38,726 nt of DNA from Neolecta irregularis DAH-3 (taxonomy: Eukaryota): assembly GCA_001929475.1 (NCBI GenBank), contig LXFE01000294.1:1-38726 (forward strand). The letters run 5' to 3'. The position numbers and the translations under genes are program-made. Positions 661-38,586 of this stretch are shown piece after piece. The first letter of the stretch is position 1. Each line of letters starts with the position of its first letter. Below the pieces are notes generated by a model. That model ran no database searches and was not told where the DNA came from. It saw only the letters and a list, made by a program, of their open reading frames with translations.

Positions 661-2937
661 TTAATCAATCTTAACATGCCTAGCGTCAGCAACACTAAAC
701 ACATTCATACCCATATATGTTCAGTACAAACTTCCACGCGGCGAGAAACCCAACTGTCCCGGTAAATACTCCCCAGACCACACACAGCAGAAATGACTGT
801 CCCACAAAAATTATGCTCGACACAAATCCAGAGGCAAATCCTCCACGCGAGAGAAACCAATACAGAGAATACCCAAAAATATAGATACTCGAACTTCCCC
901 CCACGAAAAGAGCGTTCCACCACCAGTCGTAATCTTCATACAAGAGTGTCAAATACGTCATCACTATCGTCAATTCAGATATCGTGATCAGTAGCAGAAT
1001 GAACGACACCGCAAAGAAGCCAAACAGATAGTAATACCCAGACTGTGTCTGCCACAGCGACTTTAAAATGAACAACAGTTCAACAAATATTACTCCAAAC
1101 GGCACAATTCCAGATAACAACAGTCTGCACATAAGTTTGTTGCATCATAGTGCAGTACTTTGGGACTGTCCTCAAGAATCTTGGCTGTGCAGGAATTTGG
1201 CGCGCAATCTGGGCCGTTCGCGTCGGCGCTTCTACCCCATTTCTCCCGCGGACCACGAATGCACCCATATGTACTAGCGGCAGCGAAACTAAAATCCAAA
1301 GCGACAGTATTTTTAAGAATGTCGAAAATGAAACTGCCATCGACGATTGTTTGGCCCAGAGGAAAAGGTTCAAGGTTAATGCTGCTATCAGCATGAACCC
1401 AGACGGAAGAAGCGATGTCTGAATCGTTAAATAGATCCGGCACGCACTTACTATCAATGCATTTCTCCGCCACCTAGACCCTTTGAACGTTTTATAAATG
1501 ATCTGTGAAACGTAACCGGAAAAGAAACTACCCGTCAGTTTTACAAGCAGTAACCACACCTTGCAAAAACGAATAAAATAACAGCAAAACTGAGAAATCC
1601 TCCCTGAGAACTCGGACCCAACACTCCAATGCACGAGAAGCCTATCCCGCAAAAGTAAGAACAGAGACATCCCAAAGACCGGGTGTCATACACAACAGCG
1701 TCACCAATGTAATTAATATTTGTATTCCAGTTCCAATAATTGGAGCAAATAACCCGGCTAAACCTGGCGGTCGGAAAACATCGCCGTGGAGGAGCTTCCA
1801 GCCTGAAAGATCATCTTCATTATTACCATCCTTGCAGAGTCAGCATAACCTAAACAAGACAGATACGTTTCTGCTGTGGTCGATTTGGATATCCTGACGC
1901 AACGTACGGATCATAACTAAAGCAACCAGCAGACTGAGAAACAGTACGATTATAGCATTATTAATAAATCTAACTTGGCGTCAGTATTGCAGAAATAAAA
2001 AGGAGAGACCCACCCTAGCCAATGAATGGTCGGATTCGAATCAATGAGATACGGATTCCACCGTTCCGACCACTGAAGAGATTGCTCCAACTTCCAAAAA
2101 ACAGAATATGTATACGTGATTTCATTAATTTCTCCAGTCTGGTTAAAAATATCAAGAGTGGAAAGAGTGTTAAGGGGGACTAGCGAGGGACACCGACCAT
2201 TTGTAATGTTTGTCCTAGATGCTCAGAAACAGGCAGGGATAATTAAACGTACGATCGTGGAATCCCTTCGACGCCAATAATTACTAGCTCTAGGGACACC
2301 GGGGATGCGGGTTGATAGTAGATTACTAGATCTATATGATTGTATAAAAATAGAGCCTATCCCATGCTTCAGATTGTTTTTTCGGAAGTAATACCTTCTT
2401 TTCGCCCTCCTTTTCACGGGCACCGAGCGGAAATCCTGGAATCCGCGAGATATTTCTTCCCTGGTCGGTTGAAATGTACCTTGTAGCCACAGGTAGATCA
2501 TCGAGAGTCCTAATATAAATAGCCATACAGACAGCAAAAATACCAGTCCACTACATATTGGTTTTCAATCAGTTCAGCGGCCCAACCAAGTGACTTTGGG
2601 TCCACTTTAGCTTGACACAAGACCCGACATTTAGCGTCTTCTCGAAGGAGCAACTTTTCCGATTACTATTTTTTGGTAAAGGATTGCGTGCCTTGTAATC
2701 ACTAGTAGTCATTCGATTGCCTCGAAGTACTTGGCCAATGTTGAGCGTCCTGTAAACAGGAGCAGACGGTTTACAAACAAATGGAAGCGAGGTGTACTCA
2801 TAAGGAATCTGAGTAACTTCACTGCGGATTTTGTTGAGATACAAAGGGATTTGCGATGTCGTATTATATGTCCGTGGAAAATAGCCCGGTATGTTGAATA
2901 CAGTCGTCAGGAAAGACAGGCCGTGATAGAGAAACAT
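661..2937 (-). CDS. Transmembrane 9 superfamily (Emp70/TMN) protein, about 12 exons
   Basis: Motifs YEYTSLPFVC, NIGQVLRGNR, GWKLLHGDVFRPP, SGIVPFGVIFVEL, EDYDWWW and C-terminal YGHVKID*. 11 introns of about 31-50 nt; the first is GC-AG (2654-2691). Confidence 0.95.
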
Positions 2938-3451
2938 TTGGATGGAGGTTATCAAGGAGGATAATTCATAAATTGACAATGCGGATATTGCTGTAAACAA
3001 CAAATATTCATCTTGGCATCCTGGCTCAAATCGAAAGATATTGGTGCGAAATTTCAGATATGGAACCCCGATATAAAAGAATTCTAAACAAGAGTAGTGA
3101 CCCGTAGTGCTTGAGATATTTGTAGAAAATCGGAAAGAGACAATGGCAGTGCCAAGGAACCCTTGTTGTCATCCTTCCATATTTATAGACAAGACGCAGG
3201 AGAGCACACGCTAAAAGGCTGCTAGATCAAATTTCGAGTTAATGTCAAGCAGGAATGGATTTCAGACTTGTGAGAGTAGGGAAGAAACAATCAAATGTGC
3301 CTTGTAAGACACGTTCTCTTTAGACCATCTTCCTTGGTCATTTATAGGATTACTCAACATTGCAATATTGAAAGACTAGCAAAGACATTCTTCAAGAGCG
3401 TGAAGAGAAACAACTCAATTCCGCACAATTTGCTCTTCTATATAGACACAT

Positions 3452-4399
<948 letters not shown>

Positions 4400-4618
4400 T
4401 CTGGGAGACGGGATGAGAGGGAGAAGGCAAGTGGCAAGCAGGTGGTGGTGAGCCAGCCTGAATTCCCTTTCCGCCAGTGATAGGCGAACTCGCCTTAATT
4501 AACGGTCTTTCTTCAGAATCATGATCCTGGAAATACACTCACTCGGACAGTCGTTTTATCAATAATAACCATTCGCTCTAAAGGATGGAAAAATCCCATA
4601 ACACCACCCGCACTTTTC

Positions 4619-6806
4619 CTAAAAGACTTTATAGCTTCTTGCTAATAGACAGCTAAATACGGCGAATCCCACAAGACAACCCACTATACTAAAAAACCAA
4701 ACCAAAGTAGGATGATCCTCTACTTGTCCTGGTACCAAGACATTCATGCCCCATAATCCCGTTATGAGGTTCATTGGAATGAGAATTGTTCCCAGGACCG
4801 TTAATCGGGAAAGAACTTCGTTTGTATCATTGTTTGCGCGGGCCATGTCAATGGAAATTTGTGCGAGGTAATCTGAGTTTTTAAAAGATGAAAAGTGAGG
4901 GGTCATACTACTATGCGAACGAGACAATATCTTCTCATAGTGATTCAGATTTTGAACCATGGTAACAATATGATCTACAGTCAATTTCCAGATCTTTTTT
5001 GAAGAAACTACCCTGGATATCGCCCAAATAGAGGCCAATTTCGCTTCGGGGTGCAATATCCCATTTTTCATTGCATCTTTTACTAAAGCCCTTGATAACA
5101 TCCGCCTTGCTGCCCAACAATCGTAGCAACCCCATGACTTTCTTCCGAACCACGCCAATTCTTCGCAGCATGTTGTCATCTTGAGTTACATACAATACTG
5201 CGTCATCGATTGCATCGACTTCGTCCTCAATGCGTTGAATTAAGGGTCCAAACCCGTCCGTTATGTCATCAATTAGAGCATATGATATCCAATCAGATGA
5301 GACGCTAATATAATCTTTGAGTTGTCTTATTCGACGGCGGACATTGGCAGGATGTGATGTTTCGCTGGAATGGAACTTTCTAGTTAGATATTAAACCATA
5401 GACAGTACATACAGAGAGAACACAGTCTCGGAAAACGACAAAATACATGTTTACCGGCTCCAGAAAGTTTTCGCTTGATGGATCTTGATCAAAACTACGG
5501 AAACAAACAAAGTAATAATTTCGGAACAATTCAACTTTCTCCCGAGTTTCCTCCATCGAAATATCTTCAGTAGTGAGTGGATGGATCCCAAAGGCCTAGG
5601 GAGTCAACGTTCATTTATGTGAAATGTAAACCAAGGGATACCTTTGAGATCATTTTCATCTCTGCATCCGTAGGATTGTTTACATCCAACCAAAACATTT
5701 CACCCTTTGTAAACAACTCGTTCCAGTTAGAGTTCTCGGGACATAATTCAGAAAAGGTTTGACTATGTATTGTACTAGTGAGTTCATCCGAGAAGTATGT
5801 AAATCGATAAGGTCGATCATCCTCATTCTGTCGACATAAGTGTCGTTAGACAAGACGTTCGTACCTTGCGATTAACCCATCGCCCATTAACCCGATATCG
5901 TCCATCAATTAGAGTAGGTTCATGTATTTTCCTCTGTCCTAATTTTCGATCGTATCGAATTTCCTCGTTCAACTCCTTCAACTCGTGTTTCGTCCATTCA
6001 TTAAAAACTTCAAGGTCAGGCCAGGAAATGCCCTCAGTTTCGTCAGGAACAGCTGGAAAACAAACATCTTCCTCCGCGGCCCGACTTTGCGTTCGATGGG
6101 TCTTGGGAAGGCGTGGAGTTCTGACTGTATGATCCAGCGAATCACTCAAATTGGTGGGCGAACAACGGTGAAGTATTTCATGTGGGGATCCGCCCCTCGT
6201 ATCTGAAAGGTTACTGGGCAGAGGTGATGAGGAACCATTTGCATGACTGTCAACAGCCGGGAAATTTCCTTCATCGTTTCTGGGATAGTCCCCAAGCGAC
6301 AAAAGGGTACTGTTTAAGTGAGCAATTGATCCCTGTCCACTTTCGAGAGATGGACCAACATTAAAAACGTCGACAGTCCCTGCTCGCTTGCGAGACGAAT
6401 GTCGTGGTCTGTTTTGGGATGGTAATAATTGGGAGGATTCTGTAACATCGAGACCGCCTTCCTCTTCCTCTTCGCCTGACGAAGACGACAGACTGCCCGG
6501 CAATGAAGAGTTTCCAGGTGGTTTATTGGGGGTTTTCTTTTTATATCTAAAGAATCCGGGATGGGAAGCAAGCGAGTGGGGTTGCTCTCTGTGATCCAAA
6601 AGCGTAGTTGAGTCTACAGATGTCGATGAGTGTAACTGTTGTGTATAAACCTGATTTGACGATTGAAAAGATTGTCTTCGAGGTCCCGGCGATGTAAATG
6701 CTCGAGGTGGGGTAGCTATTCGCGTTATTGGCCACGGATCCGAGAGATTCTCTTTCGTCCCATCGTTAGTTTCAGACTCCTGTACTGTAGAGTTTGTAGA
6801 AGGCAT
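4619..6806 (-). CDS. MNR2: CorA-family magnesium transporter (Mnr2/Alr1-like), 6 exons
   Basis: FWLDVNNPT, AFGIHPLTTEDI, REKVELFRNYYFVCFRSF, HSNYLAQISI and the GLWGMNVLVPGQ (GMN) signature, followed by 2 TM helices. Long disordered N-terminus. Confidence 0.92.
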
Positions 6807-6962
6807 TTTATCCGAAGAAATTGGCTTTTCGGGGCAAAATTTTTGAATGCAGATGGATGAGTAGGAACGGTAGGTGAACCTGACTAGGCGAGATTCGGTG
6901 GCACGTGGGAATCTGAACACGAACAACGTCCGTCACCTTTGCCACCTAATTCATTTACAATC

Positions 6963-7439
6963 ATGTCCTCCAAGCTTAAGGACCTTACTATTAAGACAGG
7001 TACTTCCCATTTATATCGACAGACTTATCATGAGGCGTGCTGAAGAGATTGATCAAAGAAGAAGCATCGTACTGGAAAGAAGTCGAGAGGGAAAAGCGAC
7101 GTCTTGAGAAGGTAAGGGCTGATGCGGAAGAAGACCTCGAAATAAGACTAAGGAAGCAAGTAATTGCTCCAGGCGAGTTGGAAGCCGGGCTCATCCTCTA
7201 GAATGAAGTAATAGAAGACACAAGACAGATGATACCTCATGTCCACAAACGTCTCCTCAAGTCACTACAGGATTTAGAAGATTTAGTGGTACGTGTACAT
7301 TGCTTACATTGAGTAATGAATTTTGTTATAGGCTACAGAGGATCCAGAATATGAAGGCTCAGCCGAGATCGAAGAGGCGAGAAAATGGATTGAGGAAGGC
7401 CGGAAAGCGCAAAATATGCCTGAATTTAACGGGGTTTGA
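6963..7439 (+). CDS. RBL2: Tubulin-specific chaperone A (cofactor A), 4 exons
   Basis: Spliced: MSSKLKDLTIKT/GVLKRLIKEEASYWKEVE...LRKQ/NEVIEDTRQMIPHVHKRL...DLEDLV/ATEDPEY...EARKWIEE*. Matches the TBCA pattern IKTGVVKRLxKE...ExxxMIP. Confidence 0.9.
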
Positions 7440-7689
7440 CCATTTATCGGATTTTGTTTGTTGAGTTGCATATGTAGATTTCCGAAATTACACATCAATA
7501 GAACTGCTTGGGAATAATTTTACACGTTTCAGTTCTTAAAATGGAAATGCGACGACTGCTTGATCCTCGCGTCCACCAAGGGCCTCCTCGAGAGGAATGG
7601 CTAAATATAGACAACAGATCAGGATCTTCCGGCTCGGGGGCTTTGAATTGAATTCAGAATGAATAGAGGACGGACAGTAGAACGAAATA

Positions 7690-8095
7690 GTCACTCCTAA
7701 ATCCCGCTATCTTTCGTCGCGACAAGAATCGAAAATAATCCACTATTTTGAAGAAACATTGTTGAAAAGATCACGTAAATTTGCGAAAATGTATGTCTTC
7801 TATACTTGCAGTTGAGGTTGACATGATAGATCAGAAGAAGACAGTTATCAAAACCTTTCCGAACTTATCATCCAAGACTTTCTCCCAACAATTAATCGTT
7901 CTTCTAGTTCCCCCATGGATTAAAGTCCAACATCTTCTGCAAATGACAGGCGACCTGTCCGATTATATCTTTTCTTTTCCATCAGACGGTGAAGTCACGT
8001 TTGACACTCTTAATCATCTCGATGCGATTCTCGTTGACGCAATCCTAACCCTAACCCCTGCATTGGTGTGGTGTCGAGATATGAACTATAAATAG
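7690..8095 (+). pseudogene. Tfb6-like (TFIIH subunit 11) fragment, apparently frameshifted and truncated
   Basis: SRQESKIIHYFEETLLKRSRKFAK / intron 7791-7829 / SYQNLSELI..., then in another frame KVQHLLQMTGDLSDYIFSFPSDGEVTFDTLNHLDAIL. This resembles fungal Tfb6 from memory. No clear start or C-terminus. Confidence 0.45.
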
Positions 8096-8524
8096 ATTTT
8101 AACCATATTAGACACGTGTTAAATTTGTTCCGCGCGAAATGTAAAATCCGCGAAAGGGAAATAACCACCGCCACCACCCCTACTCAAAGCTTTGCTTATA
8201 CCCACCTAGATGCCTGTTATCCGCGATCCACCTCTAAGAGAACCACCAACACTATTCACAGACAAGACTATTAAAGCATTTGAGCGGTACCTTGAGAATT
8301 ATGTGGCCAATTCAAGGAACCCAATCCTTTTGATCAACTGTGGTACAATCGCAACAAGCACTATACAATTCCCACAAATCAATAATGAAGGGTACCATTT
8401 ACATCTTTCAATCAGCACCTCTTAAAAAGGTATCAAACACAGCATATTTTCATTTTTGGTCATATATTATCATAAGAATGTCTAGTCTACTAACTGTAGA
8501 CTACTAATTAGTTTTTGACTTAAA

Positions 8525-8642
8525 AGATACATTACCCAGGATTCGCACATGGTCAACCACCGCAATACTAACCAGGCTTTGCTGGGCTTAACTTTGCAAA
8601 TCGGACGGGATGCAGTGCTTTGCCGGAGATATGAACGCATCT
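8525..8642 (-). rRNA. Dispersed 5S rRNA gene (118 nt; variant or pseudogene)
   Basis: AGATGCGTTCATATC...CATCCCGTCCGAT...AGTTAAGC...GGTTAGTA...GAATCCTGGGTAATGTATCT. The terminal helix AGAUGCGUU/AAUGUAUCU pairs, and a T-run Pol III terminator follows. Confidence 0.9.
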
Positions 8643-8660
8643 GAAAGCCAATGGCGAATC

Positions 8661-8672
8661 TTAATTATAAAG
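8661..8672 (-). promoter_or_regulatory. TATA-like element upstream of the 5S gene
   Basis: CTTTATAATTAA at about -19 to -30 from the 5S start, as is typical for dispersed fungal 5S genes. Confidence 0.55.
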
Positions 8673-9010
8673 GCAGTTTCTAACTACGAATATTAATTGA
8701 AAAAGTTTATTTCCAGAGTAGGCAAGAGTGCAAAAATTGGTGCATTTTCTAAGCAGAAACCTAAATGTGACCATTGACAGTATTAATCCTAACCCAAACC
8801 TTGCCCCAATTCCCATCGGGAAAAAATCAGGTCCAAAATATTAGCATTGTGTAACTTGGTTTGATATATCCAGGCTTATTGTAAGGTTCCCATCTTCATC
8901 TTATTATTCCCATTCCAGTTGAATCAAGTATACCATGAATGACGTTAAAAATAAAAGTTCATTGTCACGTCATTGGTAATTCTTACTGTATACAAAAAAT
9001 CTGTGTTTAA

Positions 9011-10099
9011 TTACTGATTTCCATAGGTTCGTTTAGTCAATTTTCCATTTGAGCAAGTGGTCCCGGGTGCTACCCTTCCCATATCAACATATACATCATT
9101 TGTACAAAGCGCCCAGAGCACATCTGAGATACATTTAATAGAATTCCGAACACACGAAGAGGCCAAATAGCCAGCACTTGCATTAAATGTAGACGGGGTG
9201 GGGGGAATAAATTCGGTTGAATATCTTGAGCTGTTCGAAACTGAAGAACTCCTAAGAGGACTCCGAGGTAATGCCGTTGAACTTGTGAAAGAGGAGCTAG
9301 AGGACCTCGATGGTGAGGACGCGCTGCTAGAACCTGAGCCAGAAGATATGTTATTGTCATTTGAAGAAGGACATCCGGGCAGATTTGCGCCACTCGAACG
9401 TGAACTCGGTGAACCGCCGTATTCAACACTATCTCCTGGATTTGGAAATATGATGTCCTTGTTGTCAGGGGTATTACACGTCCCCGAGCCAAATATGTTG
9501 GCTTCGAAAATAGCAGGAGCGGTGAATCCAGATCCAGATCCCGTAACTTTGACCCGAGCACAATTCATATACATTTCTCTGTTTCCGATTTCATTAAACC
9601 ATGTCCTAATGTTGTTTATTATATGGTTGCAAAGGATAGTATATACCATGCGAGCAATGCCTGACCACTCTGTGGAGCATCTGAAGGGACCGTGAATTCG
9701 TAAGAGAGAGGTAAGGGACATCCCCCAATCATGCTATGAATGACTTGAAAAGATTCGCCGTTGTTGTATGACAGTGAGATTTGACACGATCCACCTCCAT
9801 GAACGGCAGTTCCAGCAAGCCTGTTCTCATTAATAAAATCAAACGTAGGATGATTGGACATACTGGATTGTGTATGAGGACCCAGCAGCATAAGTAGCAA
9901 CAGTATGAGTGATGGGATCATTTTGATATCCTTTACAGGGAAAATCGCTACCATCCAGTGTAAGAGGGTCGGTCATACTATAATCGATAGATGACGATTG
10001 TGGATCATATTTACTTCTCAGAGGAGGAGGACTGATCATTTGAACGTGAGCGAAAGACATCAGAACCAGCTGAAGAAAGATTGCGAGGAACCAGGTCAT
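9011..10099 (-). CDS. Secreted lytic polysaccharide monooxygenase, AA11-like, with Ser-rich linker and C-terminal 4-Cys module, 3 exons
   Basis: Signal peptide then His1 ([12 protein letters not shown]), [43 protein letters not shown] (His-brace plus Tyr). The tail reads CVRNSIKC...LCTND...[10 protein letters not shown]. Confidence 0.88.
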
Positions 10100-10509
10100 A
10101 GGTTCGGCCTGTGAAAAAAAACAATTGAGGGATGTTACAAGAGGAGGAAGGAGATTGCAGAAAGAAAGCCAAAAGTCTTCCTACGCTCAACTGAGGTGTG
10201 CTGCACTCTAGAGTGGCTTAAGAGGAAATATATAGAGGTATTCCAGAATTCCTGCAAGACCATTTTCTTTCAACAGGCCAGCATTGTCATTTGAGAATTG
10301 AGATATATGACGGATGGGACAATGTGTAAGGTACGTGTGAGAAATTGTTCAACTTCCCACCCATCTACGGGATCTATCTCTTTTCGGTGATCTCCGAAAT
10401 ACGTGGAACTATTTCTTTTTTCTGGCTTTTGTCGGATTGAAACAAAGGACCAAATCCAAGACATAGAGACTTAAAGTTACATGCGCTTCCCGGTAGAACC
10501 TTTAGCGAA

Positions 10510-10705
10510 CGGCAACGAGACTCAAGAGGTGTACGGCTCTTTGCCGAGCAAAGTCATCGATAAACACGAGGCGCATACTAAAAGAGACTTCAACAGGACC
10601 ACGGGTCAATGCGGAACAAAGTTCTCGATACACACGAGGCCACTCTAAAACGGACTTCAATAGGTCAATGGCTCATTGCCGAGCACAACAAACTTTTCGA
10701 TCGAC
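10510..10705. repeat. Degenerate tandem repeat, period about 67 bp, about 3 copies
   Basis: CAAAGT..TCGATA.ACACGAGGC...CTAAAA..GACTTCAA.AGG recurs, ending at 10597 and 10664. GGCTC.TTGCCGAGCA recurs near 10535 and 10670. Confidence 0.75.
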
Positions 10706-11043
10706 AAGTGCAATCTACCAAAAAAACAGACTTTCAAAGGGGAAGCTTGATGGAATATGACATGGCAGGAAAGAGGAAGAGACAATTAGTCTTGAACTGC
10801 CGCTGTATCAAAGTTCTAGAACGCACGCAATACTCTACAACCGAACTTCTATGTATGCAACCGAAACTCCTTTGGATCAACGGACATGCCTTCGCCAAAA
10901 GAAATTGAGAAACAGAAAACATAAGAAACAGTGGTGATCAAGTTATGTCATCATCATATCATCCCCAACATTTCGCATTTCGATATTGGATACGCCATTA
11001 GCATAGTGGTTTGTATTGACTTGAGGGGTCGAACTCATCATGA

Positions 11044-11851
11044 CTATGGAACATTAGCAGATAGTAGAAGCATAGAGTAAGAACAGTTTTCAAATAAATC
11101 GAGAATATCCAATGCGCCTACGGATGTGAATATCTATAATTGTTCAAACAGGGCGTATACCTCGTCGACGGTAAACAAAAATGAACTCGGCCCCAGGCAG
11201 ATCATGCCTGTATTGAACGTCGACAGTTTTCCATTGGGCACTTGACTTCTCTCGGATAGGTCCAAGTCTTGGAATAAAAAGATTATTCAATGGTTAAGGT
11301 ATGTTACCCTGATCGACAGCTAAGACCAAGGGCATGGGCTTGGTCGTCGAGAGTAAAGTCTTCTTTCAGGTCCTGAAGATTTGCCGCTTCTTCGGCTCCC
11401 ACAATTCTCACAAAAGAGATTTTGACACGGATAGTTCCAACGGCATCATGCACATTATCTGGATTATATCCAACGCCTATTGTTAGCGATAATTCCTCCA
11501 TACATTCACCATGGGGATTTGTCTTATTGAACATCAATGGCCTGAACAGGTTGTTTCCAACCATTTTTCCGCTGACAGTGGTTTTAATCTCGTGATCATA
11601 TAATACCGGGCTGTAGAAATGTATTCCGTCTAGCATGATATCGGCGCACACAGGTTGAGAAGCCGTCTTGTGGAGTTGAACACTGAATTCAGCTCCATCT
11701 TGAGGATCTATATAAGCAGTTACGGTATCTCCTGGAAAGGTCAGCACTTATCGCTTGAAATGTAGAGGGTACCCTCTATACTAGAATGATACTCCTGCAA
11801 AGGACAACCGTTGATGCAGATAGCAGCGCTAAGGCTGTTGAGTGTAGGCAT
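11044..11851 (-). CDS. Uncharacterised fungal protein (DUF7918-like), about 5 exons
   Basis: MPTLNSLSAAICINGCPLQEYH..E/GDTVTAYIDPQDGAEFSVQL...VCADIMLDG...RPLMF...VGTIRVKI...AEFIFVYRRR/. Typical 'PL.EY...YI....G..F' start and 'F.F.YR' end. Confidence 0.6.
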
Positions 11852-26590: not shown

Positions 26591-27145
26591 TTATGTTCCC
26601 ATGGGAGCAGAGTCATGGTGTTTTATAATAAAGTTGCATCTTCTTCGTTAACATAAAGAATCAATCTGTTGGAAGCAATTGTAGATTCTTAAAATAAAAA
26701 CATCATCTAGCGAATAATTACTACAAATGAATTATATGAGTAGCAATCCACTACCTCATCGCTGGTGAGACCGAATCCGTTAAGGAGCGGGCGGACAAGC
26801 AAAGCATGAAAGGAAAATATATGGCTACAGAGTATATTCCCAAAATTGTTCTTTTATCTTGTAAACATTTAAAATTATGGGGCTTACTATTCAAGCGTTA
26901 CAAACGAGAAGAAACAGCGAGCTAAAGGGCGTAATCTTGAAATGGAAACTGCAACAGGTATTTTTGGTTTCTGAAGTCTCCGAGTGACAGAAATCCCCAT
27001 TATTACGTAGGAGGTTTCACAACATGGAGAAAAAGGCATTGAACTCGGGAAGATCTGCGAAGGATCTGATTGCAACTTGATCGAATCCCAAGTTAATAGA
27101 TATAAAACTCGCAATGGGTTGGCTACAGAAAGGCCTATTAAGAAA

Positions 27146-27761: not shown

Positions 27762-29113
27762 GGCTGACGTGCTGGGGGAAGATGATCACGTACCGCCATG
27801 TTTTTTAACATTTAAACCGATCTGCAATCACTTTCAACCCTTCACATATTCACTCTTCATCCCTGCTGTATAGAATCTTCCTGTAAATTTAACATGATCA
27901 CTAGCTTTCGCGTTGTTCAACCTAGTCAATAAAGCTAATATCAGCCCTTGGCGACATATGTCTTTGCAAATCTCGCCGTTTTGTTGGTTTCCGTGCTAAT
28001 TAAGTATGCAATCTACTTGCCAAAAGAATCATCAGGCATCAATATCAAGCTGCCCTATATTCTGTAATTTCCAAATACATTATTAAACCAAGTCCACAGA
28101 AAACCGGAATTAATTATTTGCTATATCTAAGAATGAACGCTCTGAAGAAATTGCAATGACATTATGTGTTCCTCACGAGGAAGCTGATTTGTCTATGAGT
28201 ATGGTGCATAGACTATGGACCTTCGTTTGTAAAACGATATGCTCTAGGTATGGTTGATTGGCTTGGAAACAAACTGAGAAAGTATTGCCGCTACTATCAG
28301 GATGATGAGGGAGAATCTGGAGATGTTTTGGGGGAAGATCTCCGAAATGGCTCTAGAAGACTTTTGAAAGCCTGGTGTATCTTTGGACTGGTTATGACTA
28401 CAATTCGTTCTAGTTTGCGAGGGCTTGTATTCTATATTCTCTTGGTTTCTCACTTGCGTTGCTCATAATGAAATAGCCGCATAAATATTTGGAAATTCAA
28501 AAAAGTGACTAGTAGCAGCAATGCATTCAAATCACCCTTCGTCAGATGCTAGCATAATTTTCTAGATGCGCGATATACTATTCACCAATATTTTTTAGCT
28601 ACTTTGCTTTCGATCCAAAACCTTTGAAAGGTTCCCAATATAGTCTTGTAAAAACTGGTTATCCAGTTCCAGCCGATCATGAGACGACTTAACGTCGTCG
28701 ATGCGATCGAGAAATTCTCGCAAATAAGCTTATAATAGGATGTTGAGTTGCTATGAAATACCTGCCAGATTGCCCTGAATCGCGAGTGTCTTCCTAGGAA
28801 CATTTAAGATAAAGTTGTCAAAATTCCATACAGCTCTAATTCCCTGCGTTTCTCATTCTGATCATTGGCAATTTGCCTATTGTCTTGCGATAAAACATGA
28901 CATATATCACCGTCATTAGCTACGGTCTGGGAAAATAACTCAAGCGATTCCGATTCCTTAGGATTTGCGTTGTCCATGGCAGTGGATATATCCAGGCTAA
29001 TCTGTGATGATCAATGGTTGGAGTTGATCGAGGTAACCAAAACTGGCAACCTAGTAACTTGATTTTACCTAAACATACATGTCCAACCTTTTCCTCTCGA
29101 TCACTAATTCCAT

Positions 29114-32100
29114 ATGAGTTCGAAAAGAAGAAAAGGCACTGCTGCCCGTCGAACTACCAGAATCGCAAGTGTCACTAATGATCAAATCTACGACTATACT
29201 CTGAAAGCTGCGTATCTCGCATATTTGAGTGATCCAGCGACAAGAAGGGCCATAATAGCTCAATCTGCTCACCGAATAACAGCCCCTAAAAGTCACAAAA
29301 GCACATATGTTTCTGCGGTTACAGATATTCTTCGAGATACCGAGAACCCCGGGAAAAACAAACTCCCCAAAGAATTAGTCAAAATACTCCGTGTGCAATT
29401 ACAGAACATATTCATGGGCCGACACCCAAATTACAACGATCCCCTTGTTCGTGCTACCTTCGGTGTTTTCTATGGTGCATATACAGAACCTCGGTTTTAT
29501 AAGCGCATAAAGGAAGATCGAAATGTGGAAGAACTTACCTTGATTTTTGTCACCTCTGCAACCAACGAGCTTCGCAAACGAGTAGAAGGAGATGACTGGA
29601 AGCCGATGATCGACCGACACATTGCTCTATTTCTTCGGTTGATACAGGACTGTATGAAACAGCACAATTTTGCGTCGTCGCATGCAGAATTAATGAATCG
29701 CCTCGAAGGATACGAACAAAAGCTTCTGAGAAACACAGGAGAGATTCTCGGTCAAGCACCTCAGTCGAACGATGAGAATATCCCGTTTGTTAGCTTCAAG
29801 GTGGTCGATATGCCATTGGTACAGCATGTTTTGACGATCTTTCAAAAATCTGCCCAGGTTGTGCAGAAATCCGTTAACTCTTTACGAGATAGGTATAACG
29901 AGCATGTATCTACCATTGATTTTATCGGCACTGAGAAAACATAGATATGGCTGCAAGATCTGAAACTATACGCCACCAAACTGAATATAAGCTCCCCAGA
30001 CCTCCCAAATGTCAAAGATTTCGAATCGGAAGAAGCATATATAACATGGAAAGAAAGAGAACTGCAAATTATATCGAGGTTGATGCTTCTCATGCTCCAG
30101 AATAATCCTTCTTTGAATCAAACCACACCAGGAGAAATTCGTCCGTCTTTGTTGTCATCATCTACTCAAGAACATTCGGATCCCAGACCCCGGTCAACAT
30201 CATATCCTTTGGATTTACTGAATCGAAATATCACACCACATCGAGAGAGAATGAGCATTCATACGGATTCTCCATCGGAAGCATTAGCAAATGATCCACC
30301 ACAAACCCCCGCGGAAAACTCAGTACTCTCACGATCTCAGCGATCACTAACTCCCAGATCAGCCCCACTTTCGCCTACATTCCGGATGATCCTAAGTCCT
30401 ACTATCGTCAACTAGTTGACATTTGCCTTTCGTATGACTTAACCCACGACCATATCGAGAGCCATCACGAGGGGTTGTTTACTCCACAGACTTCAACGCT
30501 CTTGAGCACCTGCGCTGAGACTTGGAGAATTCAGCCTCATACCCAACAAATCATCCTTCTCGATGTCCTAAGGTGCAAGTACGATGAAGCTGAACTAGAG
30601 AATCATCATATTCAAGCCGCTTTTGAAGATTTTCGATCCAGTGACTGGGATATGACGATATGGACAATTGCTGACACATTGATGTTTGGTCAAATCCTCG
30701 TACGTTTGAACGAAAGTCTTCTTCGAAGCTTGTATGATGTGCTTCAACATTGTTTTGAGGAGAAACCACCCCCTGCTGGGCCAATCCTTGGTATTTTGCA
30801 AGAGTTTATTCATCCAAATCCTCTGTTTCAGGAATCAGCTCCAGACTTGACTGGATATTGCGAACAGCTTAAAGAAGGTATTCAAGTACGAATTTGCCCA
30901 ATATGCTTTGCTGACAGGTCAGTCAAAAGCTACTGAAATCTATAACAGTCGGGTTGAGAAGGTTTGGGATGAACTAAACCTTGAGGTTATTCATATTTCG
31001 CAACTGGCAGAGGACATCATGACGGATATTTCTCGATTAGATAAACGCTACAAGAAAAAGGTCTTGGGGTAGGATGTTTGATGTAGGATTCTCGCTGAAA
31101 TTTAGACATGTAGATATTGTTGAGGCAATAGCTGACATGCTAATACCCCAATTTTTCAATGATGCTGATGAAATTCTCTCGAGGATTAAACCATATGTGC
31201 TTCTGGACGGAAAACTCATGACATCCCTTGAAGATATGTTTGAGTTGTATATGAAGATGATCGAAATTCGAATGATATACGAGAAAAAATGTCGAGCGTA
31301 TTGTCTTCCAGATTGTTTAGCTACTGATTGAGCAGGATGAAGATAAATTTTGACCTCGAAGCTTTCTTTCAATATGCTGTCCAGTCGTGGCTTGAGACGA
31401 CCGATGCAAAAACTTCTGAGTGGGTTGATCGGGCAATCTCCATGGATAAGGTGCCCTTCAATTGACTAGCATAGCACGAACACTAAAATGTAGTTCGTTG
31501 CTGAAGATGATGGGCAAGCACATTCTTCATCGGTAGTCGATCTTTTCGCATCTTTTACTCAAGCTGTTGGTACCATCAAAAATCTCCAGTGGAGAGATGA
31601 GTACATGAATGCTCGTTTCATGACAACTTTGTCAAAAGTATACCTCAATTCCTCAAAATGCGCTGAATTTAGACAATTGATAGAGCACTCAGCCAGTACT
31701 GCCGGATAATTGAAGAAATGTTTGCCACCGAGATGTTTCCACCTACAGTTGGCAGTCCGGATCAAGCACCTCATGAACGTTGGTTAAGTAAAGCTAAGGA
31801 TGTTTTCTCCCAAGAAAAGCTTGAACCATTCATTTTAACCCCAACTGTACTTTACCTTAGTTTTCATGCCCTCACAGACAGTCCTGCGTTCAACTAAATA
31901 ACATTGAATTCGCAAGAATGCAGCTCGATAACATTGAAAAGTCAATGGATGTTGACCATCAAGCCGAAATTATCCTTAGAAATACTACTCCAACAACTGA
32001 TCAAGCTCGGCCGGAAAGAATGGTATTTACAATCAAAATCGTCCAAGCGGAAGATCTCAAGCCCTGCGATCTCAACGGTCTAAGCGATCCTTACGTCGTC

Positions 32101-33403
32101 CTCAGCGATGAACATGGCCACCGTCTTGCTAAAACTCGAACAATATATGCGTCTCTTAATCCTAGATGGGAAGAGAGTTTTGATGTTATCACGGATGGTC
32201 CAATCTGGGTCGCAGCGACTGTCTGGGATCGAGACCGAATCGGTGATCATGATATTTGTGGAAGATGTCTTTTAAAACTTGATCCAAAATACTTCGGCGA
32301 TTACTTGCCGAAGGAATTTTGGTTGGATTTGGACACGCAAGGACGATTGTTGCTCCGGATTAGCATGGAAGGAGAGAAGGATGATATCCAGTTTTACTTC
32401 GGAAGAGCCTTTAGGAGTTTGAAAAGAGCAGAAAACGATATGACTCGTGTCATCGTGGACAAGGTAGATTGGATTCAAAAACATGCTGTTTATTAATAAA
32501 TTTAGATGTCGGATTACATCGGCTATTGGTTGTCGCGCAATATAATCAAGAAACTCCTAAATAAACCATTGATAGATATTTCTTCGGTTTCAAATCTATT
32601 CAACCGTACAAAACTTACGGCATCATTCGCTTATGGAGGATCATCAGTCGCCTTGTCGGATAACGAAATTGAGAACGCAATAGGTCCCTTGCTGGATTAT
32701 TTTGAGACCAACTTTGCCACATTGAGTGGCAATCTTAGCGACTCTGCATCGCTCATGGTCATGTCACGAGTGTGGAAGGAGATCCTGGTTACCATTGGTC
32801 AATCTTCATTTTTATCATATGCTGACGACAGAAGATATGATGATTCCCCCCCTCTCCGACCGACCATCGGATCGAAAACCCCTCGAGGAAGCGGAGGTTG
32901 ATGTTTTGTATAAATGGCTAGAATTCCTTCGGAATTACTTCAACGCAAATGGTGATGGAGTGCCCCTTGACGTTCTTCAAACAGCAAAATATCGTGAGAT
33001 CATGTCTTTAAGGTTTTTTTATGATCAGCAAACGCAGACGTTAATTCAGGAATGCGAACGGATAGCCTCTGAATCATACGACGTTTGGGATAACCAACAG
33101 AAGAATTTGCGAAATAAGTCCGTCCTCAACCAACGTAACTTGGGTACCATTAGAAGACATAAGCAAGAAAAAATGGTAGTTCAACAGCTGCGGCCGAATG
33201 ATGACGCATTGCTCCGGATTCTGAGAATGAGACCTGAAGCTGAGTTATATCTAAAAGAGCGCTTCAGACAAAGGTTTTGAGCCTTTCATAAGTACTATTG
33301 ACAAAGTAGAAGTCGTCTAAACTCTCAAGCAGTGATTGAGACCGGAATACGGAAGATTGCTGCCAAGCATGGCAATAAGAGAAGTCCCAAAGGTGAATTT
33401 TAA
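29114..33403 (+). CDS. C2 / Munc13-homology (MUN) domain protein (Ync13/YOR296W-like), about 12 exons
   Basis: YTLKAAYLAYL, AYIPDDPKSYYR, WVDRAISMDK/F...HSSSVVDLF, CVQLNNIEFAR, C2 domain FTIKIVQAEDLKPCDLNGLSDPYV...NPRWEESF, EGEKDDIQFYFGRAFRSLKR, LLRILRMR. Confidence 0.9.
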
Positions 33404-33546: not shown

Positions 33547-34065
33547 CTAGTCACTTGATAATGCCTGATGTTTAGAAGATATAGTAGGAAACTACATTAC
33601 CGCTAGAGAAAATGCATCATCTGGCTTTGCGCCCAATTCTTTCATAAGACCGCCATATGGATATTTCCTGGGCGTCGCAATTGGTTCTGGTCTTACCAAA
33701 TAGAGTACACCAACAAAAGTACCTAGTACGATCCAGAAGTATAGGAATTGGCGAGCCGCGACTCCAGGTGGTACCATATCCATAGGATCTGGAGCGAATA
33801 TATTCAACACTTCATCTTGTTCGTGTAACTAGTTATTGTCAGAAATTCGAGAGGACCAAAAGTTTACAGTCTCCCCAGTGATCCTCCTGTTCTGTTGGTC
33901 ATCGTATTTAATGTGAGGATCTCGATATTGAGTATTTATGAATGGAATATTAGTGGGATAATCCCCAATCCCAGGATCTTTCTGCACATAGCTAGATGCC
34001 AGACGGAAGAAGGTAGAACGATAGGAGGGACGGGAAATGTATGTTATGGCTCTACGGATAATCAT
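33547..34065 (-). CDS. NDUFB8: NADH:ubiquinone oxidoreductase subunit NDUFB8 (ASHI), 3 exons
   Basis: Mitochondrial presequence, DPGIGDYP, QYRDPHIKYDDQQNRRITGET/LHEQDEVL, one TM helix, PRKYPYGGLMKELG. Confidence 0.9.
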
Positions 34066-34659: not shown

Positions 34660-35349
34660 TCAACCGCCGCTATGGTACGGTGGCGGAAGTCTCGGTTCTT
34701 CTAGAGGAAGGAATGTCGACTGCTGTTGAATGTTAATCTCTTCCCGTTTGACCCAAAAAAACCGATTCGGATCTACCCGTTTCGATCCCCTTAACAACCC
34801 ATACGCAGGAGGAGGAGACGTTGTCGATATGTTATCTTCGCCGTCCCAACATATACTCTGTATAATCACTGGGTTCGTGTTGATTGCTACGATAGGCGGG
34901 CGAGATGATGGATCCAAGCTCCTTTTTGAATATGAAACCGTTGCAACTTGTCTCACGATAAGGAGTATTTCGAGTATAATGAGAGTGATGAAAGCAATAT
35001 GCGTTGAATCAGGTACCATTCTAAAAGCGATGAGGAGCGCATCTGTTAAGTTGGTTGGAATAATTAACTATAAGTGTTGCTTACATAGAAGTATCGTGAC
35101 AATGAACGCCAGCAAAGCAAGCATTGTAGTAATCAGGTTGAAAATTTGTGTTCGAGAGACAGCTTTTGATATTTCTCTCCGACTAGATGGACAAGGATGC
35201 TGCTCCGTCCCAGGGGTACTTCCACCTCGATGATTACCAGGACCTGCTGGCCCTGGAAGAATGCCTGAGTCGTGGTCAGTTCTCCCGGGTAGGCTCGTCG
35301 TAAGCCGTTTTAGGGAGAAAGCCACCGAAGTCCATAAACTGGTAGGCAT
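34660..35349 (-). CDS. Small fungal membrane protein with cytoplasmic PY motifs, 2 exons
   Basis: Two hydrophobic helices, then SPPPAYGLLRGSKRVDPNRFFW and LPPPYH. The GTAAGC...TTAACAG intron joins the two ORFs. Confidence 0.7.
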
Positions 35350-37705
35350 GCTAAGGACGCAAATTGACGCAAAATGAGGATGTTAGTCGAGATAAGGGCA
35401 GTAATAGAAGTTGAAAGTGGCAGACCGGCTGCGCTGCAGCAGAGTTTGCTTGCTCGTAATAGAAATCAGATGTCGAAAGATAGATTAGATCTTAGGCAGC
35501 GGTTCTCTGAGAATCAAGGGTGAATAAAGTGATGCGACTATTGAGGGTGGAGGGTGTTAATCCTTAGAAAAGCTAATAACATGGCACGGAGTCAGGTCAT
35601 ATTAGTGCAACTGGAGTAAAACTGAAAAGCATTGAGATTTTCGAGAAAACTTGAGATATAGAACCATGAATGCGTTGTTATTATTCCTCACTCTACGTAA
35701 ATCCTGTTTCACTGTCACAGTGAGTCCACAACATTCACTTTTTTGACAATAAGATCCAAAAAGAGTCGTACTAGTCCAGTTAGGTGCTCATGTAGTGTCG
35801 CTATTAAAATGCCTTAAATTTATCGATACTTAGTGTTAATGTTTAAGATTGTTAACTTTCGATAACATTAAACCCCCTGCAAAACGATTCTGAAGGTACC
35901 TAAGACAGGATGGATGGCATTATGAAGTCTGCATTAATTAATGAAATGAAACGCCGTGAAGATTTCCCGGGAGACGAAGCAAAGTGGAACTGTCTACTGT
36001 ATTCGAAGTATAGATTAGATATATTCAAACTACATATATTCTTGAAAAGCTCTGTTTGGTATGCCTACAGAATTTTGTTTGCATAAATACAATGTTATAA
36101 AAGGGGAAACCCCACAAGCGTAGACTTCGTTTTAGCCCTATATTGTTGAAAGGCATGTCCTATATAATGTGGTCTCCCCAAAAAGCCTGACCGCTCGTTT
36201 AACTCATATTTCTGTCGCTTGATCCGTTGCAAGTATCTCGACAGAGTGAAAATAAAACCAGGCTTATAGTATACTAGTCTAAGATAGTGAGTGAGTTTAG
36301 ACCATCCCATCTTCAAAGGCCACATTATTGCGCGCCACTTGCTGCATTGGTAAGATACACCTTTGGTATTTCTTCATAGTCTTGCATCTGTCCCATATTC
36401 TTTGGAGACCGTTATCATCACTAAACTATTGTTCATCGTAAGGTTAATTATTCTCTAATAGTTCATATGGTAGGTCAATTGGGCCAAGTTCTTTCAATGC
36501 ACCATAGCTTCGATGATTCTTAGAGCATGGACCAAAAGAAATCTCCATGAAAATTGAATGTAATCAGAACCTTCTAGTTCTCTTAAATTCTTTTGTGGTA
36601 TCATGACTGGGCAGATTCAAGCTTCCTATAATTCATTTACAAGTGCCACATGGGCGTACGAGGGTATTGTTAGCGACTCTTCTTTCGCCAGAGATTGTGA
36701 GAGCGTTGACAAATTCTATTCCTGTAGAAATCCCACATGCTAAGGTCAGCTGGGAACTGTCATATTATATGACTAGAGTGTTTTACTTCTACGGAGAAAG
36801 AGTTTTTGGAAAATCCGATCTTCTTCATCAACTCATCCTTTGATGATGAGAAATCTTGCAAGGGAATTCGTCAGAGTCAACCTGCTTTTTAAAAGTTGCG
36901 CTAAGTCCATAGCGAGAATTCCTAATTCGGAATATTCGAGCTCCTACATAATTTTCAACGAATTCTTACTCTTGACGTTTATTCTTGACTTCAAAGCATT
37001 TTTTATACGTTATCAAGTCCGTGGAGAATCTTACAAATCAGAGTACGAATGAGAAAAATGCCTACTTTCATAATATCAACCTGCCTTTACAGAGATTAGG
37101 ACCGATAAAATATTGTACAGGAGAACTAAAGGGTTTTCCAGACGTTCTAGCGTCTCAGCCTTCAGATCATGAAAATGGTGAGCATCCTGCTTACTCGCAT
37201 CAAGCTGGCATTCATCTTTCCTGTACCGAAACTACTGTAAAACTCTTCAATCTCAGAGCTTTTGGTCACTTTGACAAATCAACCATACAATGGCTACGAC
37301 CTACATCACTGGCCAGCATTGTTTACGTATTGCCGAGGTCGCTACTGCTGACAATTCACCGATTCTTCGGATATACTGCTTAAATCCCTACGAACACGAG
37401 TACCCATTCTGTTCTTAAAAGAATATGGGTGTAATCTGTATCCTTATTCGTCATTATATTATTGGTAAGAACGCGAGTAATTTATCAAACTAACTTTTCA
37501 CGCGAGTCAAGAAGGTCTTAGTCATTCGCCATAACTCAGAAGTGTCGAACAGTTGCGAATAAAAGCGATCATTATAGCTTCCTTCGGAGATCATCACGGA
37601 AAGGCTTCCTAGCATATCATGGGTTGCAATCCCAGCTCTCTCAGAAACCAGTTTAAAGACCCCGCCATTCCTATATCAAAGTCCATACATTCTGCTTCTC
37701 CAGTC

Positions 37706-38586
37706 ATGTCTTCATACCTAGTAACTGGTGCATCTCGAGGCCTTGGCGCAGAGTTTGTTCGCCAATTGGTCCTTTCACCAAAATCCACAATAGTTTACGC
37801 TGCAGCGAGGAATCCCCACTCTTCTGCTGATTTGAAAGAGATCAAGAAAATAGATAAAGACGGAAAGTTGGTTTTCCTCACAATTGATATCGATGATGAG
37901 GCCAGTATCACGGTAGTGTCTGCGACAAACCGTTGCTGAGACTTCAGGCTGCTGTTAAAGCGGTTGAACAACAGTCGGGAGGTCTTGATGTTCTCATTAA
38001 CTGTGCTGGCATAGCGTCTTTGCAAAAGATTCAAGACCTGTTACTTCCTTCTCATTCTATCGCTGATTAGTAAGTACCGGCGAAGAGCTCCTTCGACTTC
38101 TTAAAACTAATGTGGTCGGAACTCATCTTGTCACCCGAGCACTCCTTTCACTTATCAAGAAAGGGTCTGGAAAAAAGATCGTCAACATGTGTGCCCTTTT
38201 CTATTGCTCTTGGATTAACACATATAGCTCAAGTTATACCGGAAGTATTGGAGGAAGCAATGCTCTCCGTTGTGGAGGATACGCGACCTCTAAGACAGCA
38301 TTAAATGCAATTACTGTCGTAGAGAGACCGCGTTCGGCTCGCTACTAATATTTAGCGATGGGCCAAAGAACACCAAGATCTCGCCATATTTATTGTTCAT
38401 CCCGGTTGGGTAAAGACTGGTATGTGTATCCCTGTAAGTTTTCATTGACCTTCAGATATGGGAGGTTCAGATGCTGCGCTGGAAAAAGATGTGAGTATCA
38501 AGGGAATGCTCGAGGTTATTGAGAAGACTGGGCGAGAGGGAAGTGGTACTTCATTAGGTTACGACGGAAGCACTCTCCAATGGTAG
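37706..38586 (+). CDS. Short-chain dehydrogenase/reductase (CsgA/C-factor-like), 6 exons
   Basis: YLVTGASRGLG, LDVLINCAG, KTNVVG, KIVNISS, YATSK (YxxxK), VHPGWVKT/DMGG, terminal YDGSTLQW*. Confidence 0.93.

Follow-up and report, generated by a model that had tools for sequence, protein, structure and literature searches.

We analyzed contig LXFE01000294.1 of the early-diverging ascomycete Neolecta irregularis DAH-3 (assembly GCA_001929475.1), a stretch of 38,726 bp that we call the window, and find that its genes are interrupted by very short introns, of which we curated 75 between positions 680 and 38455, with lengths of only 29-59 nucleotides (nt). These introns are most readily understood, with a probability that we put at about 0.72, as ordinary major-type (U2-dependent) introns at an extreme setting: very short, uniform in length, with a consistently placed branch motif (yTrAy about 8 nt before a yAG) and a 5' splice site (donor) in which G|GTA alone is strongly kept, where the bar marks the start of the intron. 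As in other members of the U2-dependent class, termini are GT-AG in all but three introns, removal joins the exons exactly, and a yTrAy branch motif is present. The donors depart from the fungal consensus GTRNGT with its conserved G at +5 (G at +5 in 20/49 and T at +6 in 20/49 of the best-supported introns), which is a typical fungal trait rather than a requirement for belonging to the class.

Four Lines of Evidence Define the Introns

The window holds about 19 protein-coding genes on both strands, cut into many short open reading frames (ORFs). Pfam matches identify among them a TM9SF/EMP70 protein, a Ran GTPase, a CorA-type transporter, an MFS transporter, a tyrosine phosphatase, a RhoGEF, Swr1, EMC10, NDUFB8, a short-chain dehydrogenase, and a Munc13-like protein with MUN and C2 domains, and two protein records of N. 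irregularis DAH-3 match the window: P0011 (NEOLI_001392, Munc13-like) and P0012 (Helicase swr1). An Rfam search finds no small nuclear RNA (snRNA) genes in the window, its sole match being a 5S ribosomal RNA gene, and ARAGORN finds no transfer RNA genes there.

Introns were established from four independent lines of evidence: spliced contigs, homologue alignment, annotated proteins, and ab initio prediction. The first draws on two sequencing runs, X1 and X2, whose contigs were compared with positions 400-20399. X1 contigs are collinear with the window, with no skips, and their depth stays for the most part level at about 360-460, rising locally to 744 and 1,339; X2 contigs skip 45 short intervals, and their depth ranges from 34 to 1,560 across genes. 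From the spliced joints and the uneven depth we infer that X2 is transcriptome-like, though it is recorded as "DNA?". Joint details were listed for 15 of the 45 skips, all 15 in minus-strand genes. Of these, 12 show CT..AC at their ends, which corresponds to GT..AG in the sense of the gene, and one shows CA..AC; the other two are composite skips that enclose micro-exons and carry extra letters between their sides. These 15 skips resolve into 17 introns, and three further X2 contig pieces begin or stop exactly at predicted boundaries (5865, 13594, and 18072).

Homologues were aligned with a purpose-written protein-to-DNA spliced aligner that requires just a GT or GC donor and an AG acceptor. 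In the TM9SF gene, 10 introns are backed in this way, each in 6-10 of 10 alignments, and the spliced TM9SF protein aligns lengthwise with the 10 homologues. The annotated proteins P0011 and P0012 are reproduced without mismatch, with 11 and 8 introns, respectively. The ab initio predictor scores length, branch, and acceptor and is neutral to donor positions +3 to +6; it regained 10 of the 11 Munc13-like introns and 5 of the 6 introns in the N-terminal part of Swr1 exactly, and it supplied 26 more elsewhere. Several of its calls were dropped: 4642-4684, 4494-4538, and 4235-4278, which belong to a CorA/Ran fusion; 9324-9372, inside a Ser-rich ORF; 10177-10274, doubtful at 98 nt; 2551-2586 and 31888-31916; and all predictions antisense to known genes.

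By class of evidence, 17 of the 75 curated introns come from X2 joints, 3 from X2 piece ends, 12 from homologues, 17 from annotation, and 26 from ab initio prediction only. We refer to the 49 introns backed by spliced contigs, homologues, or annotated proteins as the supported set.

Introns Are Short and Uniform in Length

Over all 75 introns the median length is 38 nt with a standard deviation of 5.2 nt, and 71 of them fall within 31-46 nt; in the supported set the standard deviation is 4.8 nt and 47/49 fall within these bounds. A preliminary description of this DNA, made from its letters, had counted about 73 introns, mostly of 31-46 nt and at longest about 59 nt, and these figures are reproduced here. 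Two introns reach 59 nt, one at 4235-4293 (within a composite X2 skip) and one at 7000-7058 (ab initio only), and the 31-nt intron at 680-710 that had been given as an example is found in 6 of 10 TM9SF homologue alignments, the remaining four of which end before it. Termini are GT-AG in 72/75 introns, the remainder being one GC-AG, one AT-AC, and one GT-TG, and most introns have TAG or CAG acceptors.

Lengths that are a multiple of three occur in 12/49 supported introns, against 33% expected, with phases assigned for part of the introns only. Multiple-of-three introns of 33-36 nt (4873-4908, 11477-11509, and 22164-22199) evade frame-based prediction, 22164-22199 evades the public annotation as well, and further introns of this kind may be hidden in the contig's long exons.

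The Donor Signal Is Concentrated in G|GTA

Base frequencies in the supported set are 26/49 for A at -3, 24/49 for A at -2, 32/49 for G at -1, 41/49 for A at +3, 27/49 for T at +4, 20/49 for G at +5, and 20/49 for T at +6. The information content declines from 0.94 bit at +3 to 0.24 at +4, 0.12 at +5, and 0.01 at +6 (1.31 bits in sum); the well-conserved part of the residual consensus aaG|GTAtgt is G|GTA alone. There are 35 distinct donor hexamers among the 49 introns, GTAAGT and GTATGT together making up 3/49; GTRAG is present in 1/49 and AG at -2,-1 in 18/49. Outside the GT itself, agreement with the canonical CAG|GTAAGT extends to 3.06 of 7 positions for real donors, compared with 1.60 for decoy GTs.

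Typical fungal introns have G at +5 in about 80-95% of cases. Here it is found in 25/75 introns overall, the number estimated beforehand, and in 20/49 of the supported set (41%, 95% confidence interval 27-56%), 5/17 X2 joints, and 5/26 ab initio-only introns. The supported value exceeds the 17% G found inside introns (binomial p = 6e-5) and is far below 85% (p = 1.6e-12). The preliminary description had set its claim of weak donors against a frequency of 85-90% G at +5 in RNA-validated donors; given the values at the X2 joints and in the supported set, the claim therefore stands. Its wording that the donor consensus has "collapsed" is too strong, with G|GTA kept and G still the commonest base at +5 in the supported set.

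Mis-called donors do not account for the low +5 G frequency: just 3 of the 38 introns without +5 G that lie outside the RNA-like joints have a frame-compatible +5 G donor for the same acceptor, and two of these three alternatives would make introns of 77-78 nt. Among the ab initio-only introns the consensus is weaker throughout (G at -1 in 9/26, A at +3 in 18/26), and some of these introns are probably wrong calls; for this reason the overall 33% G at +5 is likely a slight underestimate, and about 40% is the best figure. The spread among genes is wide, from 7/11 in TM9SF to 2/11 in the Munc13-like gene. Cross-tabulating the two G positions in the supported set gives 12 introns with both -1 G and +5 G, 8 with +5 G only, 20 with -1 G only, and 9 with neither (Fisher p = 0.56, at low power).

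Ten donors singled out beforehand fared unevenly. GTACCC (11732-11772) is seen in an X2 contig, and GTGCCC, GTCAAT, and GTTTTG belong to the annotated Munc13-like model; GTTACT, GTAGCA, and GTAAAC come from ab initio prediction only; GTTGAA occurs only in the dropped 98-nt prediction, and GTGGTC and GTTTCT were not recovered.

Branch Position and Length Help to Locate the Splice Sites

Of the 49 supported introns, 36 carry a yTrA motif 5-16 nt from their 3' end, compared with 12.8 +/- 3.0 in shuffled interiors (maximum 23 in 1000 shuffles); the other 13/49 have no match in this interval. The distance from these putative branch points, placed by the motif, to the 3' end has its peak and median at 8 nt and an interquartile range of 7-9 nt.

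We measured donor choice with the acceptor fixed, taking as candidates the GTs 20-120 nt upstream (mean 5.9) and scoring by leave-one-out (n = 47). The true donor is ranked first by length in 41/47 cases, by a donor matrix spanning -3 to +8 in 33/47, and by the two together in 43/47; positions -3 to -1 plus +3 achieve 32/47, and +4 to +6 only 17/47. The length distribution is thus narrow enough (standard deviation 4.8 nt, 47/49 within 31-46 nt) that, with the acceptor given, it alone picks the donor in 41/47 cases, a statistical statement and not proof of a ruler mechanism. The earlier proposal, in which length and branch position count for more than donor pairing in defining these introns, accordingly holds in the informational sense (41/47 versus 33/47, with yTrA in 36/49), with the reservation that the donor keeps its G|GTA and that a ruler is not proven.

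The Ran Gene Contains AT-AC and GT-TG Introns and Two Micro-Exons

All RNA-seen oddities of the window lie in the Ran gene (3452-4399, minus strand). Its GT-TG intron (3718-3753, 36 nt, GTACCT...CTG) is an X2 joint compatible with GT..TG or GG..CT only, and Ran homology fixes it to the residue: the flanking exons correspond to residues 79-141 and 142-210 of human Ran and to residues 81-143 and 144-212 of yeast Gsp1, abutting between 141 and 142 of 1i2m_A and between 143 and 144 of 3m1i_A with no residue lost or gained. A CTAAT branch motif stands 8 nt from the end of this intron, the modal distance, and the next AG is 12 nt into the exon.

The two composite X2 joints each enclose a micro-exon. 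Joint 4236>4348, with nine letters between its sides, comprises a 59-nt intron (4235-4293, GTAGAC), an 11-nt exon (4294-4304) that forms part of the P-loop in the spliced frame GDGGTGKTT, and the 43-nt AT-AC intron (4305-4347, ATATGC...CAC), whose boundary is unambiguous from the flanking letters. Joint 3945>4034, with five letters between its sides, comprises a 45-nt intron (3945-3989, GTATTT), a 12-nt exon (3990-4001) that matches the letters within the joint and completes the Ran frame, and a 38-nt intron (4002-4039, GTATGA). With the simple X2 joints at 3475-3509 (35 nt, GTATGA) and 4121-4164 (44 nt, GTATTT), splicing yields a product of 216 residues with the P-loop GDGGTGKTT intact.

In minor (U12-type) introns the 5' end is rigid and of the ATATCCTT type, and a branch site of the TCCTTAAC type lies 10-15 nt before the 3' end. 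The AT-AC intron has ATATGCCA at its 5' end and TTCTAAT as its sole branch-like motif, which does not match this consensus. In the account of Ascomycota given in PMC10639083, no convincing minor introns or minor snRNAs are reported. For both reasons, 4305-4347 is most plausibly an AT-AC intron of the U2 type. AT-AC, GT-TG, and GC-AG ends had all been proposed before the X2 contigs were compared with the window. The first two are seen in those contigs, the GT-TG end being confirmed by Ran homology; a GC-AG intron at 2654-2691 is found in 10/10 homologue alignments only and is not among the listed X2 joints.

Probably an Extreme Form of Ordinary Splicing

From the introns, their lengths, their removal in the spliced contigs, their base frequencies, and the predictive power of length, we infer what factors might read these signals. 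Each intron would be recognized as one unit (intron definition), through a short contact between U1 and the 5' splice site of about 4 base pairs (-1 to +3); factors that bind the branch site and the 3' end would stabilize this contact from the far side of the tiny intron. Constraint on the later contacts of U6 and U5 with positions +4 to +6 and the exon end would be relaxed, and most positional information would reside in the geometry of 5' splice site, branch, and 3' splice site rather than in donor pairing. The canonical form of the residual consensus, aaG|GTAtgt, suggests relaxed constraint on ordinary U1, U5, and U6 contacts and not a changed specificity, which elsewhere takes the form of a new strong consensus, for example GTGCGTG (PMC2483917). 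Splicing here is intron definition of the known sort taken to an extreme, and it does not constitute a new kind; what stands out is its degree for a fungus, together with a branch-to-3' distance that varies very little and the absence of the usual compensation.

Several points weigh against reading the introns as ordinary ones at an extreme setting. The data come from one contig and 49 supported introns, so that the genome-wide +5 G frequency could be anywhere from about 27 to 56%. X2 is on record as "DNA?" and not as RNA, its RNA-like nature being our deduction, and 15 joints are listed of 45. In addition, 17 supported introns derive from an annotation with two demonstrated errors in Swr1, and the length model was tested with the acceptor given, which favors length. 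Finally, the expected compensation between exon end and +5 is absent (-1 G versus +5 G, p = 0.56), and since the two are not anticorrelated and 9/49 donors have neither, a simple trade-off between U5 and U6 fails for the weakest sites.

A bolder version, which we put forward tentatively and expect to be wrong more often than right by a wide measure, is a near-minimal reading of the 5' splice site. The intron would be defined by about four paired bases (G|GUA) together with a geometry anchored on the branch A, which lies about 29 nt from the donor and about 8 nt from the 3' end, and geometry would override sequence rules, as in the TG acceptor at the modal distance, the tolerated AT-AC ends, and the joining of 11-12-nt exons. 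The cause would be that, in this lineage, the proteins or snRNA modifications responsible for proofreading the 5' splice site at the hand-over from U1 to U6/U5 have changed.

The alternative that survives best, unlikely as we consider it, is that Neolecta has specialized machinery: an altered U1 5' end, U6 ACAGAGA box, or U5 loop 1, or altered or extra proteins (U1C, Luc7, Prp8, SNRNP27K, METTL16, or Prp4 kinase targets), with distance measured from the branch site and pairing at +4 to +6 dispensable. The preliminary description had predicted altered U1 or U6 snRNAs or factors of the Prp8 or U1C type. Such machinery would fit the 0.12 bit at +5 and 0.01 bit at +6, the advantage of length over donor sequence (41/47 versus 33/47), and the 9/49 donors without both -1 G and +5 G; it would also fit a TG acceptor used at the modal 8 nt past CTAAT with the next AG just 12 nt downstream, and the splicing of 11- and 12-nt micro-exons. 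A changed RNA specificity, however, should give a new, strong consensus in place of the canonical one that we observe. Donor preferences in other fungi do track the presence of splicing proteins, but the U6 ACAGA box is reported as invariant across 240 fungal species with differing donor preferences, among which the shifts in 5' splice-site preference tracked METTL16 and SNRNP27K and not sequence change in U6 or U1 (PMC10581693). In Schizosaccharomyces pombe, weak sites are described as needing Prp4 kinase (PMC4701394). Together, these observations make protein-level differences the more likely place to look.

It is improbable that the contig is merely atypical and that Neolecta donors are genome-wide just mildly weaker than those of other Taphrinomycotina. 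The wide spread of +5 G among genes (7/11 versus 2/11) and the 95% confidence interval of 27-56% leave some room for such a sampling effect, against which about 19 unrelated genes on both strands share short lengths and mixed donors, and the upper confidence bound lies well below the values typical of fungal splice-site logos and of the "typical GTRNGT" (PMC2483917). That the weak consensus is an artefact of donors misplaced in hand-made or automatic gene models is very hard to credit and already largely refuted: the ab initio-only set is indeed the weakest (+5 G 5/26, -1 G 9/26), one ab initio call (11134-11176) was corrected by X2 evidence to 11118-11160, and the public Swr1 model includes one intron that is false and misses another, but joints read directly from spliced contigs show 5/17 +5 G, homologue-pinned junctions agree in TM9SF, Swr1, and Ran, and only 3/38 non-G donors have a frame-compatible +5 G alternative.

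Comparison with Known Systems

The intron richness of Neolecta is already known, with 4,202 introns reported in 1,211 orthologues compared with 862 in S. pombe (PMC7940399). The Neolecta genome paper, based on DNA and RNA sequencing and describing 5,546 genes, does not use the words "intron" or "splice" in its main text (PMC5309816), and in the papers that we searched on Neolecta and introns we found no description of Neolecta splice signals. S. pombe, of the same subphylum, likewise has short introns, a CTRAY-type branch site near the 3' end, and donors more degenerate than those of Saccharomyces cerevisiae (PMC4701394). It differs in that GUAAGU and GUAUGU are given as 50% of its donors (29% and 21%; PMC4701394), compared with 3/49 here, and the introns of the Neolecta window are shorter and far more uniform (29-59 nt), at an intron density that is several-fold higher (PMC7940399).

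Weak donors in an intron-rich genome fit the known inverse relation between intron number and 5' splice-site strength described by Irimia and Roy, in which intron-rich genomes have weak boundaries and intron-poor genomes strong ones (PMC2483917); Neolecta, too, combines many introns with lax boundaries. Two features set it apart from that relation as presented there: weak-boundary introns still favor "a more typical GTRNGT" (PMC2483917), whereas +5 G is in the minority here, and in Neolecta a weak 5' end goes together with a nearly constant distance from branch to 3' end, a feature associated with intron-poor species (PMC2483917).

Roughly half of human donors are reported to lack the GURAG form, and 5' splice sites have been divided into two classes, AG//GUNNN read through U5 loop 1 and NN//GURAG read through the U6 ACAGA box (PMC11732430). 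The 20/49 Neolecta donors with -1 G only resemble the AG//GUNNN class (PMC11732430). Neolecta differs from the two-class scheme in showing no anticorrelation between -1 G and +5 G (p = 0.56, n = 49, low power), with 9/49 donors having neither, in its rarity of GTRAG (1/49) and the frequency of AG at -2,-1 (18/49), and in its preference for T over A at +4.

Tiny introns of about 15-30 nt, depleted in multiple-of-three lengths, are found in ciliates and nucleomorphs. These share with Neolecta a narrow length window and a conserved GTA start; they are shorter, and multiple-of-three lengths in Neolecta (12/49) are not clearly depleted. In U2-type AT-AC introns a first A pairs with a last C, and a TG acceptor is a rare known alternative to AG. 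The Ran introns at 4305-4347, with first A and last C, and at 3718-3753, with its TG acceptor, conform to these precedents, and they differ in being constitutive, both in one housekeeping gene and beside 11- and 12-nt micro-exons. Non-canonical introns make up 2/17 RNA-seen junctions here, far above the rate of roughly 1% in fungi.

Swr1 and Errors in the Public Annotation

The Swr1 gene (minus strand) illustrates how such introns are missed. A 39-nt intron at 20259-20297 (GTATGT) is supported by 8/8 homologues and the annotated protein. At 22164-22199, within the ATP-binding GxGKT motif, all eight homologues splice out a 36-nt multiple-of-three intron (GTATGA) that the annotated protein reads through and retains. 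Conversely, the annotated 42-nt intron at 20397-20438 (GTTTAA) was rejected: it is seen in 0/8 homologues and deletes 14 conserved helicase residues. The N-terminal part has six annotated introns, at 23764-23802 (GTTTGT), 23902-23936 (GTAATG), 24030-24068 (GTATCG), 24186-24226 (GTATCT), 24573-24606 (GTAGAG), and 24751-24790 (GTATTT); the donor-neutral predictor returned five of them unchanged and agreed on the donor of the sixth, whose acceptor it placed 3 nt off. Scattered homologue "introns" in the non-conserved N-terminal part, each from one homologue and mutually inconsistent, were ignored.

Introns of the Other Genes

On the minus strand, the TM9SF gene has introns in 10/10 homologue alignments at 1125-1158 (34 nt, GTACTG), 1419-1451 (33 nt, GTAAGT), 1528-1559 (32 nt, GTGTGG), 1642-1691 (50 nt, GTATGA), and 2510-2543 (34 nt, GTATTT), and the GC-AG intron at 2654-2691 (38 nt, GCACGC) has the same support from homologues only. 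The intron at 680-710 (GTATGA) was described above. Support is 7/10 for 2215-2252 (38 nt, GTACGT), 7/10 for 2357-2394 (38 nt, GTATTA), where the other three alignments use the same donor with a nearer acceptor, and 6/10 for 1970-2013 (44 nt, GTGGGT), where four took a 23-nt GC alternative. One more, 1831-1866 (36 nt, GTATCT, or a 30-nt GTCTTG variant), is ab initio only and removes an in-frame stop. At 400-1100, covering the 3' end of this gene and sequence upstream, four substitutions and three single-base insertions in 700 bp separate an X2 contig from the window, to which X1 is identical; X2 thus comes from another haplotype or individual.

The CorA-type transporter gene (minus strand) has X2 joints at 4873-4908 (36 nt, GTATGA) and 4975-5011 (37 nt, GTAGTT), an X2 piece beginning at 5865 that delimits the 37-nt intron at 5828-5864 (GTACGA, also predicted ab initio), an ab initio intron at 5376-5412 (37 nt, GTATGT) whose flanking ORFs cover Pfam CorA positions 24-84 and 85-181, and an ab initio-only intron at 5596-5641 (46 nt, GTATCC). 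X2 joints also define two introns of the secreted-protein gene (minus strand), at 9606-9646 (41 nt, GTATAT) and 9821-9863 (43 nt, GTATGT), and those of the minus-strand DUF7918 gene at 11044-11084 (41 nt, GTTCTT), 11118-11160 (43 nt, GTATAC), 11268-11307 (40 nt, GTAACA), 11477-11509 (33 nt, GTGAAT), and 11732-11772 (41 nt, GTACCC), the fourth of which escaped ab initio prediction because its length is a multiple of three. A further X2 joint, 12093-12132 (40 nt, GTATTG), lies in the upstream part of the DUF7918 transcript, probably its 5' untranslated region, and a 38-nt intron at 11945-11982 (GTGACC) is predicted ab initio only. The secreted Ser-rich protein gene and the DUF7918 gene (9606-12132, minus strand) have by far the highest X2 depth (about 1,200-1,560), and one X2 contig spans both.

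Two introns meet the ends of X2 pieces and are also predicted ab initio: 13595-13635 in the MFS transporter gene (minus strand, 41 nt, GTATGC; piece stopping at 13594) and 18073-18106 in the RhoGEF gene (plus strand, 34 nt, GTATGC; piece stopping at 18072). The tyrosine phosphatase gene (minus strand) has an ab initio intron at 15482-15517 (36 nt, GTAATC), whose flanking ORFs cover Pfam Y_phosphatase positions 3-81 and 82-234, and a doubtful ab initio-only one at 16046-16085 (40 nt, GTCACT). The Munc13-like gene NEOLI_001392 (29906-33309, plus strand), whose model matches P0011 with no mismatch in 1303 columns and of whose 11 introns 10 were independently predicted, has annotated introns at 29906-29944 (GTATCT), 30323-30357 (GTACTC), 30886-30922 (GTACGA), 31069-31105 (GTAGGA), 31298-31335 (GTATTG), 31451-31493 (GTGCCC), 31638-31672 (GTATAC), 31847-31881 (GTACTT), 32464-32505 (GTAGAT), 32798-32831 (GTCAAT), and 33274-33309 (GTTTTG).

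The remaining introns are predicted ab initio only. On the plus strand these are 7000-7058 (GTACTT), 7160-7201 (GTAATT), and 7289-7331 (GTACGT) in a small coiled-coil gene of low gene score; 18304-18340 (GTCTCT), 18438-18476 (GTGTCT), and 18552-18587 (GTATCC) in the RhoGEF gene; 19144-19183 (GTAGCA) and 19421-19449 (GTCGTA) in an SBDS_N-domain gene; and 37913-37947 (GTAGTG), 38040-38074 (GTTACT), 38319-38355 (GTAGAG), and 38420-38455 (GTATGT) in the short-chain dehydrogenase gene, whose model is probably short of one multiple-of-three intron. On the minus strand they are 13854-13884 (31 nt, GTATTA) in the MFS gene; 26019-26064 (GTCGAA), 27123-27156 (GTACGA), 27359-27395 (GTAATT), 28729-28761 (GTATTT), and 28794-28831 (GTATGG) in three small genes; 33829-33867 (GTAAAC) in the NDUFB8-like gene; and 35068-35100 (GTCACG).

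Two other observations concern the contig itself. The 5S ribosomal RNA gene (8524-8642, minus strand) is complete (Rfam, 83 bits) and stands alone between protein-coding genes; X1 depth is about threefold higher at 7737-8403, and several contigs break or have loose ends at 8189-8647, which suggests a dispersed repeat around this gene. The contig start (1-470) is G+C-rich, open in several frames on both strands, and without a Pfam match, and may be a repeat or a contig-end artefact.

Implications

The choice of 5' splice sites under weak pairing with U1 and U6 is an open question. Most work on it has been done in animals and plants, whose long introns, exon definition, and numerous regulators complicate the matter. 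A much simpler natural system would be offered by a compact fungus in which thousands of introns are about 38 nt long, G at +5 stands at only about 40%, and AT-AC and GT-TG introns are seen in RNA; such a fungus would also usefully inform how intron number relates to the strength of splice sites. Should the near-minimal reading of the 5' splice site be true, Neolecta would be a natural fungal model of donor choice without pairing at +4 to +6. In addition, loose donors and short introns of multiple-of-three length mislead gene predictors, and the public Swr1 model is wrong twice; for these reasons, the gene models of Neolecta on which comparative studies of fungal multicellularity draw may need re-annotation.

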